From IMG/VR virus record IMGVR_UViG_2671180577_000007: DNA of 7,323 bases; one strand, written 5' to 3'. The notes below the pieces were generated by a model. That model ran no database searches, had not been told where the DNA came from, and saw only the letters and a program-made list of their open reading frames with translations. Below are positions 1 through 7,323 of the stretch, piece by piece. The number at the start of each line of letters is the position of its first letter. Positions within the stretch are counted from its first letter, which is position 1. Made by a program: the position numbers and the translations under genes. Origin of the DNA: a virus. Its lineage: Duplodnaviria > Heunggongvirae > Uroviricota > Caudoviricetes.

Positions 1-1
1 G

Positions 2-742
2 ACACAGACAGAATCAGCGATTCTGGCGCACGCCCGGCGATGTGCGCCAGCGGAGTCGTGCGGCTTCGTGGTAAGCACGCCGGAGGGGGAAAGATATTTT
101 CCCTGCGTGAATATCTCCGGTGAGCCGGAGGCGTATTTCCGTATGTCGCCGGAAGACTGGCTGCAGGCAGAGATGCAGGGTGAGATTGTGGCGCTGGTCC
201 ACAGCCACCCCGGTGGTCTGCCCTGGCTGAGTGAGGCCGACCGGCGGCTGCAGGTGCAGAGTGATTTGCCGTGGTGGCTGGTCTGCCGGGGGACGATTCA
301 TAAGTTCCGCTGTGTGCCGCATCTCACCGGGCGGCGCTTTGAGCACGGGGTGACGGACTGTTACACACTGTTCCGGGATGCTTATCATCTGGCGGGGATT
401 GAGATGCCGGACTTTCATCGTGAGGATGACTGGTGGCGTAACGGCCAGAATCTCTATCTGGATAATCTGGAGGCGACGGGGCTGTATCAGGTGCCGTTGT
501 CAGCGGCACAGCCGGGCGATGTGCTGCTGTGCTGTTTTGGTTCATCAGTGCCGAATCACGCCGCCATTTACTGCGGCGACGGCGAGCTGCTGCACCATAT
601 TCCTGAACAACTGAGCAAACGAGAGAGGTATACAGACAAATGGCAGCGACGCACACACTCCCTCTGGCGTCACCGGGCATGGCGCGCATCTGCCTTTACG
701 GGGATTTACAACGATTTGGTCGCCGCATCGACCTTCGTGTGA
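2..742 (+). CDS. K: Tail tip assembly protein K (MPN/JAMM + NlpC/P60 domains), 5'-partial; reading frame is open from the window edge
   Basis: Frame 2 is open from nt 2 to the TGA at 740-742. The translation carries a JAMM-type motif (HSHPGG...SEAD) and an NlpC/P60-like Cys/His region (GVTDCYTLF...HAAIYCGDGELLHH). A candidate catalytic Glu (PAESCGFVV) lies upstream of both in-window starts (GTG 68, ATG 143), so the true start is probably upstream of the window. The 103-nt overlap with the next gene matches the lambda K/I arrangement as I recall it. Confidence 0.85.
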   Translation, partial: TQTESAILAHARRCAPAESCGFVVSTPEGERYFPCVNISGEPEAYFRMSPEDWLQAEMQGEIVALVHSHPGGLPWLSEADRRLQVQSDLPWWLVCRGTIHKFRCVPHLTGRRFEHGVTDCYTLFRDAYHLAGIEMPDFHREDDWWRNGQNLYLDNLEATGLYQVPLSAAQPGDVLLCCFGSSVPNHAAIYCGDGELLHHIPEQLSKRERYTDKWQRRTHSLWRHRAWRASAFTGIYNDLVAASTFV

Positions 743-1311
743 AAACGGGGGCTGAAGCCATCCGGGCACTGGCCACACAGCTCCCGGCGTTTCGTCAGAA
801 ACTGAGCGACGGCTGGTATCAGGTACGGATTGCCGGGCGGGACGTCAGCACGTCCGGGTTAACGGCGCAGTTACATGAGACTCTGCCTGATGGCGCTGTG
901 ATTCATATTGTTCCCAGAGTCGCCGGGGCCAAGTCAGGTGGCGTATTCCAGATTGTCCTGGGGGCTGCCGCCATTGCCGGATCATTCTTTACCGCCGGAG
1001 CCACCCTTGCAGCATGGGGGGCAGCCATTGGGGCCGGTAGTATGACCGGCATCCTGTTTTCTCTCGGTGCCAGTATGGTGCTCGGTGGTGTGGCGCAGAT
1101 GCTGGCACCGAAAGCCAGAACTCCCCGTACACAGACAACGGATAACGGTAAGCAGAACACCTATTTCTCCTCACTGGATAACATGGTTGCCCAGGGCAAT
1201 GTTCTGCCTGTTCTGTACGGGGAAATGCGCGTGGGGTCTCGCGTGGTTTCTCAGGAGATCAGCACGGCAGACGAAGGGGACGGTGGTCAGGTTGTGGTGA
1301 TTGGTCGCTGA
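640..1311 (+). CDS. I: Tail tip assembly protein I (223 aa)
   Basis: ATG at 640 preceded by GAGAGAGG; 223-aa product with an N-terminal ubiquitin-like region and a Gly/Ala-rich hydrophobic segment (GAAAIAGSFFTAGATLAAWGAAIGAG). Length, overlap with K and sequence are near-identical to lambda gpI as I recall it. Stop TGA 1309-1311. Confidence 0.9.
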   Translation: MAATHTLPLASPGMARICLYGDLQRFGRRIDLRVKTGAEAIRALATQLPAFRQKLSDGWYQVRIAGRDVSTSGLTAQLHETLPDGAVIHIVPRVAGAKSGGVFQIVLGAAAIAGSFFTAGATLAAWGAAIGAGSMTGILFSLGASMVLGGVAQMLAPKARTPRTQTTDNGKQNTYFSSLDNMVAQGNVLPVLYGEMRVGSRVVSQEISTADEGDGGQVVVIGR

Positions 1312-1329
1312 TGCAAAATGTTTTATGTG

Positions 1330-1350
1330 AAACCGCCTGCGGGCGGTTTT
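1330..1350 (+). other. GC-rich RNA hairpin in the I-J intergenic region (terminator-like; probably read through in the late operon)
   Basis: AAACCGCC (1330-1337), loop TGCG, GGCGGTTT (1342-1349), followed by T-rich sequence; sits in the 60-nt gap just upstream of the J RBS (GGAG 1361-1364). Confidence 0.35.
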
Positions 1351-1368
1351 ATCGTTTATGGAGCATGA

Positions 1369-4770
<3,402 letters not shown>

Positions 4771-4789
4771 ATTTTATAACCCATATACG

Positions 4790-4813
4790 GGCGCCAGAAA
4801 TGACGCCTTTTTT
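4790..4813 (+). terminator. Weak hairpin plus T6 tract between J and lom (possible partial terminator)
   Basis: GGCG (4790-4793) pairs with CGCC (4804-4807) around a 10-nt loop, followed by TTTTTT (4808-4813). The stem is short, so activity is uncertain. Confidence 0.25.
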
Positions 4814-4837
4814 ATTGCAGAAAAGCGAGAGGTAATT

Positions 4838-5437
4838 ATGCGTAAACTTTATGCCGCCATTTTGTCCGCAGCCATTTGTCTGGCCGTATCCGGTGCGTCT
4901 GCATGGGCGTCTGAACATCAGTCCACGCTGAGCGCGGGCTATCTTCATGCCTCGACGAACGTTTCCGGCAGCGATGATCTGAACGGGATTAACGTGAAAT
5001 ACCGTTATGAGTTTACGGACACGCTGGGAATGGTGACGTCATTCAGCTATGCAGGAGACAAGAATCGCCAGCTTACCCGTTACAGCGATACCCGCTGGCA
5101 TGAAGATTCCGTGCGTAACCGCTGGTTCAGCGTAATGGCGGGGCCGTCTGTGCGCGTGAATGAATGGTTCAGCGCGTATGCGATGGCGGGTGTGGCTTAC
5201 AGCCGTGTGTCGACTTTCTCCGGGGATTATCTCCGCGTAATTGACAACAAGGGGAAAACGCACGACGTGCTGACCGGAAGTGATGACGGTCGCCACAGCA
5301 ACACGTCTCTGGCGTGGGGAGCTGGCGTGCAGTTTAACCCGACCGAATCCGTGGCCATTGATATTGCTTATGAAGGCTCCGGCAGTGGTGACTGGCGCAC
5401 TGACGGTTTCATCGTGGGTGTCGGTTATAAATTCTGA
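4838..5437 (+). CDS. lom: Lom outer-membrane protein (Ail/Lom/PagC family 8-stranded beta-barrel), 199 aa
   Basis: ATG at 4838 with GAGAGG RBS; N-terminal signal peptide ([24 protein letters not shown]). The C-terminus [25 protein letters not shown] matches the Lom/Ail family and ends in the aromatic residue typical of outer-membrane barrels. Position immediately after J matches lambda lom. Confidence 0.9.
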
Positions 5438-5463
5438 TTAGCCAGGTAACACAGTGTTATGAC

Positions 5464-5490
5464 AGCCCGCCGGTTCAGGCGGGCTTTTTT
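5464..5490 (+). terminator. Rho-independent terminator downstream of lom
   Basis: Perfect 8-bp GC-rich stem AGCCCGCC (5464-5471) / GGCGGGCT (5478-5485) with loop GGTTCA, followed immediately by a T6 run (5485-5490). Confidence 0.8.
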
Positions 5491-5501
5491 GTGGGGTGAA
5501 T

Positions 5502-6815
5502 ATGGCAGTAAAGATTTCAGGTGTACTGAAAGACGGCACAGGAAAACCGGTACAGAACTGCACAATCCAGCTGAAAGCAAAACGTAACAGCACCACGGTG
5601 GTGGTGAACACGCTGGCCTCAGAAAATCCGGATGAAGCCGGGCGTTACAGCATGGACGTTGAGTACGGTCAGTACAGCGTTATTCTGTTGGTGGAAGGAT
5701 TCCCGCCGTCACATGCTGGGACCATCACCGTGTATGAAGATTCCCGACCCGGTACGCTGAATGATTTTCTCGGAGCCATGTCGGAGGATGACGTCCGGCC
5801 GGAGGCACTGCGCCGTTTTGAACTGATGGTGGAAGAGGTGGCGCGTCACGCTGAGGAGGCGAAGAAGAATGCCGGAGAGGCGGAGACGTCAGCGAGGAAT
5901 GCCGGCATATCAGCCAGTCAGGCAGAAGAGAGCGCTGCAAATGCTGACACTTCAGCAGGGGAGGCATCGGAGTCAGCCCGGCAGGCGGCAGAAAGTGCAG
6001 CCTCAGCAAAGCAGTCAGAGGAGGCGTCCTCGTCCTCGGCTTCTGCGGCCGCTCAAAAAGCCAGTGAGTCATCACAAAGTGCAGCAGAAGCTGAATTGTC
6101 AAGAAAGACGGCAGAAAGTGCAGCCGGTAATGCAGCCAGGGATGCAACGACCGCAACAGAAAAAGCCCGGGAGTCAGCAGAAAGCGCACAGTCAGCGGAA
6201 CAAAGCAGGATAGCGGCGGAAGAAGCCGTAAACAGAATCCCCACCGTGGTGGGACCTCCCGGGCCAAAGGGGGAACAGGGGCCCGCGGGTCCTCAGGGGC
6301 CGAAGGGTGATAAGGGAGAGCGCGGTGACACCGGCCCTGTCGGGGCAACCGGCGAACGGGGACCGGCAGGTGATGCTGGTCCGGCAGGCCCGCAGGGGCC
6401 GAAAGGTGACAGGGGAGAGCGGGGAGAGACCGGTCTGACGGGAAATGCAGGTCCACAGGGTCCAAAGGGAGATACCGGTGCGGCAGGCCCGGCAGGCCCA
6501 CAGGGACCGAAAGGAGAAACAGGTGCGGCTGGCCCGGTGGGGGCAACCGGACCTCAGGGACCGAAGGGCGACCCGGGGGAGACACAAATCCGTTTTCGTC
6601 TGGGGCCGGGAAACATTATTGAGACAAACAGCAATGGCTGGTTCCCGGATACAGATGGCGCACTCATCACCGGACTGACCTTTCTTGCCCCCAAAGATAC
6701 CACACGGGTTCAGGGTTTTTTTCAGCATTTGCAGGTCAGGTTTGGTGACGGGCCGTGGCAGGATGTTAAGGGGCTGGATGAAGTGGGCAGTGATACAGGC
6801 AGAACAGGAGAATGA
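5502..6815 (+). CDS. stf: Side-tail-fibre-like protein with lambda-Stf-type N-terminus, Ala/Ser/Glu-rich repeat region, collagen-like (Gly-X-Y)37 domain and a short distinct C-terminal domain (437 aa)
   Basis: ATG at 5502 gives [37 protein letters not shown]..., matching the lambda Stf N-terminus as recalled; the ORF track starts 2 codons earlier at GTG 5496. It lies 64 nt after lom, as in lambda. An A/S/E-rich low-complexity region spans ~5850-6240, the uninterrupted Gly-X-Y run spans 6252-6584, and a 76-aa C-terminal domain follows before TGA 6813-6815. Confidence 0.85.
6252..6584 (+). repeat. Collagen-like triple-helix repeat: 37 consecutive Gly-X-Y triplets with a recurring GPQGPKGD/E unit
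   Basis: Translation [111 protein letters not shown], with Gly at every third residue and no interruption. The unit GPQGPKG recurs at least four times, with matching near-repeats at DNA level. Confidence 0.9.
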
Positions 6816-6816
6816 C

Positions 6817-7086
6817 ATGAACATATTAAAAAAAATTATGCAGCGTCTGTGCGGTTGCGGAAAGCATGATGACCGTGAAGACGGGGAGTTACTTACAGCA
6901 CAGCTGCGACTGGGACCGGCAGACATTCTGGAGTCAGATGAGAATGGCATTATCCCGGAGCAGGACAGGGTAATCACGCAGGTGGTGATACTGGATGCGG
7001 ATAAAAAGCAGATACAGTGTGTGGTAAGACCGCTGCAAATCCTGCGTGCTGACGGGAGGTGGGAAAATATTGGCGGGATGAAGTAA
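6817..7086 (+). CDS. Small hypothetical protein (89 aa), translationally coupled to the fibre gene; function unknown (candidate fibre chaperone/assembly factor or cargo gene)
   Basis: ATG at 6817 lies 1 nt after the fibre stop, with AGGAG (6806-6810) 6 nt upstream. Product MNILKKIMQRLCGCGKHDDREDGELLTAQLRLGPADILESDENGIIPEQDRVITQVVILDADKKQIQCVVRPLQILRADGRWENIGGMK is acidic with no signal peptide. The ORF track extends it upstream to 6685, but that part overlaps the fibre gene out of frame and lacks an RBS. A terminator follows. Confidence 0.55.
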   Translation: MNILKKIMQRLCGCGKHDDREDGELLTAQLRLGPADILESDENGIIPEQDRVITQVVILDADKKQIQCVVRPLQILRADGRWENIGGMK

Positions 7087-7100
7087 CCCGACAGCTTCAC

Positions 7101-7126
7101 AAAACCGGAGTCCGGCTCCGGTTTTT
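7101..7126 (+). terminator. Rho-independent terminator after the small ORF
   Basis: AAAACCGGAG (7101-7110) / CTCCGGTTTT (7116-7125) form a 10-bp stem with loop TCCGG and a T5 run (7122-7126), 15 nt after the TAA at 7084-7086. The A-tract/T-tract symmetry suggests it could work in both directions. Confidence 0.65.
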
Positions 7127-7171
7127 GTTGTCATGTAAGGCAGATGTTTGTTAAAGCTATTTAAGTCTGGA

Positions 7172-7198
7172 GTTTAAATGTAACCGGCTCATTTAAAC
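7172..7198. repeat. Perfect 9-bp inverted repeat (GTTTAAATG / CATTTAAAC) with 9-nt spacer in an AT-rich intergenic region
   Basis: Left arm 7172-7180 and right arm 7190-7198 are exact reverse complements; spacer TAACCGGCT. Neighbouring sequence has further TTAAA/TTTAA motifs (7151-7165). Confidence 0.5.
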
Positions 7199-7233
7199 CG
7201 TCTGGTCTGTTTCCTCCGGCTCTACAAAAATAA

Positions 7234-7255
7234 TGTCCATCATTTTTAATGGACA
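7234..7255. promoter_or_regulatory. 7-bp inverted repeat (TGTCCAT / ATGGACA) next to a -10-like AATAAT, immediately upstream of a new ORF start; candidate operator/promoter
   Basis: Arms at 7234-7240 and 7249-7255 with an 8-nt T-rich spacer; AATAAT at 7229-7234. No convincing -35 was found, so the promoter call is weak. Confidence 0.3.
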
Positions 7256-7262
7256 CTATCGT

Positions 7263-7323
7263 ATGAAACACCGGACCTGGATCACTGAAGCTTTACGTCT
7301 TCACTTTGAAGAACATTTACCCC
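7263..7323 (+). CDS. Possible 5' end of a downstream gene (partial; runs off the window)
   Basis: ATG at 7263 opens frame 3 (MKHRTWITEALRLHFEEHLP...), open to the window end. It follows the terminator and AT-rich palindromic region. Only 20 codons are visible and the RBS is weak (GGACA), so this is tentative. Confidence 0.25.
   Translation, partial: MKHRTWITEALRLHFEEHLP

Follow-up and report, generated by a model that had tools for sequence, protein, structure and literature searches.

What lies beyond the tail genes at the right-hand end of this viral DNA, and does the open reading frame that begins there belong to the prophage? In the window, which is the whole stretch of 7,323 nucleotides analysed, the last late gene is followed by a segment (7087-7323) that the initial annotation described as an abrupt switch to AT-rich, palindrome-dense DNA, a probable module or cargo junction and the start of an ORF that is a candidate accessory gene. 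A cargo hotspot after the tail-fibre terminator has been established for about two decades. Taken as a whole, the best explanation, in which we have high confidence, has the window run to the far end of a lambda-like prophage carried by an E. coli of the attaching/effacing type, and holds that the insertion sequence ISCro1 very probably transposed into the effector-locus spacer of this prophage at 7179|7180, the 'new ORF' being its tnpA. Every component is of a known kind with known behaviour, and nothing in the arrangement is new.

Tail module and terminator

According to Pfam searches, the genes of the window make up the distal tail module of a lambda-like phage, and bases 1 to ~7130-7154 are 97-99.7% identical to E. 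coli prophages. The genes (Pfam assignments) and the hairpin that follows them are listed below.

68-742: NlpC/P60 and JAB protein, K-like
640-1311 as listed: tail assembly protein I
1372-4770: tip attachment protein J, 1132 aa
4838-5437: Ail/Lom
5496-6815: tail fibre, 439 aa, with a prophage N-terminal domain, collagen repeats and a Phage_fiber_C domain
6817-7086, + strand: last late gene, encoding an 89-aa 'phage tail fiber C-terminal domain' protein (PF06820 Phage_fiber_C, E = 1e-36)
7101-7132, + strand: intrinsic-terminator-like hairpin, arms 7101-7110 and 7116-7125, loop TCCGG, T-rich tail

The 89-aa protein carries an identical annotation in relatives. Its gene begins one base past the stop codon of the 439-aa fibre, and PF06820 occurs twice in tandem, at the fibre C-terminus (residues 365-428) and then over most of the 89-aa protein; orphan Phage_fiber_C fragments are also found farther downstream in several relatives (L004, 8287-8358; L011, 12789-12908). 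Within the tail-fibre gene, GC peaks at 0.70 with a strong positive AT skew at 6200-6500, overlapping the collagen triple-helix repeats (protein residues 253-311, ~6252-6428).

The arms of the hairpin, which was found as repeat I2 in an inverted-repeat search, are 10 nt long and 100% complementary. As RNA it folds at -21.2 kcal/mol (z = -4.7), a stability equalled by 0 of 200 shuffles, and it is kept in all relatives aligned. The sequence 3' of the hairpin is TGTTGTC, and the tail reads TTTTTGTTG when counted from inside the stem end, so that 7101-7132 has the make-up of an intrinsic (rho-independent) terminator, a GC-rich hairpin with a U-rich tract behind it where an operon ends. Judged from these sequence features, the hairpin at 7101-7125 would end the late operon (K, I, J, lom, tail fibre and the small fibre-C-domain gene). 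A simple promoter/terminator consensus scan did not list it on the + strand; the scan returned one promoter-like site in coding sequence and one minus-strand terminator-like site (7200-7185), neither count being above the shuffle expectation (mean 0.5). A search of 6700-7323 against Rfam, with E up to 1, found no known RNA family; the only hit, to the H19 lncRNA, scored 15 bits (gathering score 50) and is meaningless.

The junction at 7179|7180 and the ISCro1 end

When 6800-7323 was compared with 5426 complete E. coli genomes, many prophage matches at 99.7% identity were found, all ending at query position 384 (~7183), and the features under the few longer matches include "IS66-like element accessory protein TnpA". 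When the window is aligned with two copies of the insertion sequence, L002 and L003, and with L004, a prophage lacking the insertion, the boundary falls at 7179|7180: the empty site in L004 reads ...GGAGTTTAAAT|TAAAATAGGGAG..., and the window reads ...GGAGTTTAAAT|GTAACCGGCTC.... Phage homology (99.7%) ends at ~7179-7183, where 100% homology to the IS starts, and this precise fit to both the IS terminus and the empty site argues strongly that the junction is a genuine insertion. By the same alignments, 7087-7179 is native lambdoid-prophage DNA, that is, the terminator and then ~54 nt of AT-rich spacer, which as far as 7179 is of the FORC_042/Sp9 type, being identical in L004, L005 and L007 and differing at one position in L006. 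The module junction proposed earlier is thus real, and the change of origin lies at 7179|7180, not at the terminator. The features of this part are as follows.

7126-7179, + strand: native AT-rich prophage spacer, GC 0.315, putative start of the exchangeable effector locus
7172-7179, no strand assigned: target octamer GTTTAAAT, the predicted 8-bp target-site duplication, deduced from the L004 empty site
7180-7323, + strand: left end (first 144 nt) of ISCro1, IS66 family, identical at 144/144 nt to the 2699-bp copies L002 and L003
7180-7205, + strand: left terminal inverted repeat (IRL) GTAACCGGCTCATTTAAACCGTCTGG, starting GTAA
7230-7259, + strand: imperfect hairpin I3 within the IS, over the annotated tnpA start codon, arms 7230-7240 and 7249-7259
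7233-7323, + strand: 5' part of tnpA, an IS66-type accessory gene, 30 codons, with ATG 7263 as codon 11

The boundary also divides the compositional change. GC falls from 0.570 in 1-7086 to 0.426 in 7087-7323, and the lowest 200-nt value of the whole window (0.415) lies at 7101-7300, followed by a tie at 0.455 between 4701-4900 (the J-lom spacer) and 7001-7200. The reported AT-rich switch is therefore confirmed as a drop in GC that is real yet modest; it is not one type of DNA, however, but two unrelated pieces, the native spacer (7126-7179, 0.315) and the IS end (7180-7323, 0.424), and full-length ISCro1, at 0.551, is overall not AT-rich.

Both of the inverted repeats noted after the terminator exist. 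Repeat I4 (7172-7180/7190-7198, 9 nt, perfect) spans 7179|7180: phage DNA supplies its left arm, and the left repeat of the IS the right one. Its fold is ordinary (z = -1.28; 19 of 200 shuffles equally good); since it straddles the junction and folds no better than this, it is a phage/IS chimera and a by-product of the insertion. The minus-strand terminator-like site at 7200-7185 is this chimeric palindrome. Repeat I3 is internal to the IS, with 10 of 11 positions (91%) complementary, a folding energy of -8.6 kcal/mol and z = -2.86 (1 of 200 shuffles as stable); by analogy with other IS elements, it might be speculated that this hairpin restrains tnpA translation of read-through transcripts.

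The window covers only the first 5% of ISCro1 and ends inside the element, so to speak at its threshold, and the identity of the element was established from its end and from identical copies. In a search of 7176-7323 against the 5426 E. coli genomes, 1451 of them had a 100% match over at least 80% of the query, and in total the IS end was matched at 5343 places, chromosomal and plasmid-borne, in 1746 genomes. These copies adjoin unrelated genes (trbJ, finO, ogr, gspO and a tolC-like gene), with one in an F-type tra region, and 37 distinct upstream flanks were collected; the sequence is thus found in multiple unrelated contexts, as expected of a mobile element. The terminal inverted repeats of the IS66 family are reportedly ~20-30 bp long and begin with 5'-GTAA. 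Here GTAA begins both ends, the left one in the window and the right one in the identical copies, and the IRL matches the reverse complement of the right end at 18 of 26 positions in full copies.

The element in L002 and L003 is 2699 bp long, begins with GTAACCGGCTC and ends with ...GAGTCGCTTAC. Perfect 8-bp duplications flank identical copies (CCGTAAAT within an ogr gene and GTAGAAAT within an F-type trbJ/trbB region), and most of the ISCro1 copies surveyed are full-length with duplications. IS66-family elements consist of three genes in a row, namely tnpA (an HTH accessory protein), tnpB (IS66 Orf2) and a DDE transposase gene whose product has zinc-finger and leucine-zipper regions. Full copies encode a 225-aa TnpA (NCBIfam IS66_access_TnpA, E = 1.1e-88, aligned from residue 13; Pfam HTH_Tnp_1), an IS66 TnpB (IS66_TnpB, E = 5.2e-38) and a 523-aa IS66 DDE transposase (E = 2.4e-143), and the transposase of identical copies is named 'IS66-like element ISCro1 family' (PGAP/RefSeq). 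The published ISCro1 is likewise 2699 bp long with an 8-bp duplication (PMC12115866), and the expansion of the element in Citrobacter rodentium has been pointed out (PMC3072379). ISCro1, first named in Citrobacter rodentium ICC168 and widespread in E. coli chromosomes and plasmids, shares with the window all 144 of 144 nt, including the GTAA inverted repeat and the tnpA start; the tnpA-tnpB-transposase order and the 8-bp duplications are seen in the known copies. Compared with these, the only detectable difference of the window is the insertion site, which was seen in no other sequence searched.

The open reading frame is real and remains open to the window end, as reported. The frame reading MKHRTWITEALRLHFEEHLP starts at 7263, and an in-frame ATG upstream, at 7233 (MSIIFNGHYR MKHRTW...), is the start annotated in RefSeq copies; read from there, the window ORF is identical to residues 1-30 of the 225-aa TnpA of L002. 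Because the NCBIfam TnpA model aligns from residue 13, either 7233 or 7263 could be the true tnpA start. The 20 codons that had seemed unrecognisable are those of ISCro1 tnpA, not of an accessory gene of the prophage. That the ORF at 7263 (or 7233) is instead a novel accessory or cargo gene has a negligible probability: it does sit exactly where this lambdoid group carries cargo, and its 20 visible codons are not self-explanatory, yet the DNA from 7180 onwards is 100% identical to an IS present in at least 1451 E. coli genomes, elsewhere this IS is flanked by its own inverted repeats and target duplications, and the protein belongs to the IS66 accessory TnpA equivalog of NCBIfam. The IS identity, the equivalog match and the duplications of the full copies refute a novel cargo gene, and the correct annotation of the candidate "accessory gene" is ISCro1 tnpA.

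The effector locus and its probable interruption

The relatives that share the K-I-J-lom-tail-fibre module (97-99.7% identity) lose homology to the window at ~7127, ~7154 or 7180. Their gene content after the terminator is listed below.

FORC_042, JNE132847, O157:H7 strain 4276 and Z1323PEC0011: a frameshifted nleG-like (DUF1076) gene and nleA
JNE132847, O157:H7 strain 4276 and Z1323PEC0011: nleH1-2 next, within the segment retrieved
Z1323HEC0108: an EspF-repeat remnant
Z1322HEC0009: espS and two nleG-family genes
Z1322HEC0001: nleH, cif, an nleG-like gene and espJ
22-245: remnants, then an nleG-like gene and nleA

The view that the region behind the fibre genes is a module junction and a hotspot for cargo was thus borne out, since the relatives carry different type III secretion effector genes there, and the expected variation of content downstream of the terminator was found as five gene sets and three homology breakpoints among relatives of 97-99.7% identity. 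An exchangeable effector locus was reportedly described by Tobe et al. in 2006 in lambda-like prophages of EPEC and EHEC. The spacer of the window lies directly after the last fibre gene and the terminator, with K, I, J, Lom and the fibre recognised by Pfam, and by sequence comparison the region after the terminator is most readily identified as such a locus. Previous study placed the exchangeable effector locus at the very end of lambda-like prophages, found IS elements in all effector loci examined, and regarded the arrangement in FORC_042 and Sakai as ancestral (Nakamura et al. 2021, PMC8112680). The locus of the Sp9/CP-933P-type prophages at ompW has the same position after fibre and terminator, the same AT-richness, variable content and frequent IS elements; unlike these loci, the window shows only the first 54 nt before the IS, and the effector genes are known from the relatives. 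In Sp9/FORC_042-type prophages (L004, 7299-8358; L005, 8301-9360; L006; L007), nleA is separated from nleH1-2 by a degraded tyrosine integrase and a fragment of the tail-fibre C-domain. This looks as if the end of a second prophage had been left behind within the effector locus and fits the prophage-in-prophage model (PMC8112680).

In the Sp9/FORC_042-type relatives, the spacer corresponding to 7126-7179 is the upstream region of the nleG-like (DUF1076) gene. The ATG of this gene in L004 lies 19 nt past the insertion point and is preceded by AGGGAG, so the IS would come between its ribosome-binding site and the upstream DNA. In relatives, the nleG-like gene is often already a frameshifted pseudogene.

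The course of events suggested by these data is as follows. The late operon would finish at the hairpin terminator (7101-7125), and 54 nt of native AT-rich DNA would open the effector locus. ISCro1 would then have transposed into this spacer at 7179|7180, 19 nt upstream of the nleG-like start of the Sp9/FORC_042-type relatives, in the orientation in which tnpA, the first of tnpA, tnpB and the DDE transposase gene, reads away from the tail genes. Beyond the window, the 2699-bp ISCro1 is predicted to end with ...GACGAGTCGCTTAC and to be followed by GTTTAAAT and then TAAAATAGGGAGTTTTATAATG...; we infer that the IS copy is complete and flanked by the GTTTAAAT duplication, that effector genes still follow it, and that it separates the nleG-like gene from its upstream signals. 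The junction should accordingly be annotated as the point where an IS has inserted at the beginning of a prophage's exchangeable effector locus.

Such an insertion may silence or uncouple the downstream nleG-like gene. A comparable case, at a different locus, is known from E. coli ST131, in which ISCro1 occupies the intergenic afa/dr regulatory region upstream of a virulence gene and reduced transcription of the gene downstream (PMC8764528).

Completeness of the copy and choice of site

The uninterrupted site is present in 464 of the 5426 complete E. coli genomes, and the occupied junction in 0 of them; exact searches with a 37-mer in genome_contigs and with a 26-mer in viral_contigs and metagenome_contigs also gave no match to the occupied junction. 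The ISCro1 insertion at this position is strain-specific and could for that reason serve as a strain marker. The absence of the exact junction from the complete E. coli genomes and from all three contig collections, together with the end of the window inside a multicopy repeat, is what an assembly artefact would also produce, in which a contig end was wrongly extended into a repeat. This reading is highly improbable, however, because the IS repeat (GTAA) starts right at the join, and the join itself lies precisely in a known empty site, a pattern that transposition predicts and a chimeric join does not. Less improbable, though still unlikely, is that the insertion is real and the IS piece is a truncated or solo end, or marks one edge of a composite structure or of a deletion or inversion mediated by the IS, in which case the effector locus would no longer come after it. 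Effector-repertoire variation at such loci has been attributed to IS-associated events (PMC8112680), and L001 (E. coli SCPM-O-B-7615, 6300-8500) contains nested and truncated ISCro1 copies very close to the corresponding position, followed by IS1 and IS2; against this, the 144 nt in the window are undamaged and match full copies at every position, and most copies surveyed are of full length with duplications. A complete ISCro1 copy at 7179|7180 remains the preferred reading, and its end also explains why the window, or its contig, would stop here, in that short-read assemblies probably break at such multicopy repeats.

L001 is a diverged locus (92.9% identity) that carries an independent ISCro1 22-23 bp downstream of the window site, directly before the nleG-like start, and the tnpB of this copy is itself interrupted by a second, nested ISCro1; the leader of the effector locus is thus a repeated IS target. 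These two independent insertions, 22-23 bp apart, are the basis of a further idea, namely that ISCro1 preferentially and repeatedly inserts within a few tens of bases upstream of the first nleG-like gene and switches effector expression off, or on via an outward promoter, which we consider very doubtful. If such a preference existed, a loose target pattern, or a resemblance of the target to inverted IRL positions 11-19, might guide it.

Insertion sites were surveyed by scanning genome_contigs with the left repeat, which gave 33 loci (L012-L044), about 30 of them contig ends of Escherichia sp. MOD1-EC7003 (NZ_PTRE01...). The 37 distinct upstream flanks, that is, those of the window, L001-L003 and L012-L044, come mostly from this one genome, and L002 and L003 were selected for AAAT, since matches had been ranked by full coverage of a query starting at 7176; the AAAT in these two is therefore a selection effect. 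Across the 37 flanks, no fixed target, no conserved AAAT and no inverted-repeat-like motif was found. Mild biases were observed (C at -10 in 24/37, G at -8 in 17/37, T at -6 in 21/37, and A/T at -4 and -3), and these positional biases of ISCro1 flanks are tentative because most sites are from one genome. Target choice through similarity to the IS end, as the junction palindrome GTTTAAATG/CATTTAAAC might suggest, was rejected in view of its z of -1.28 and the lack of such a motif in the 37 sites.

In the draft genome of MOD1-EC7003, the ISCro1 left repeat of these ~30 loci lies ~25 nt in from an end of the retrieved DNA, and the flank differs each time, which implies a large expansion of ISCro1 in this strain, and these contig ends show that assemblies break at the element. 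ISCro1 was also met in metagenome-assembled genomes labelled as Segatella copri (L016) and Clostridiales bacterium (L035), that is, Bacteroidota and Firmicutes. The L035 contig is exactly the IS (2699 bp) and differs from the E. coli element at 2 of 2699 positions; most likely, both are mis-binned Enterobacteriaceae repeat contigs and do not reflect a real host range.
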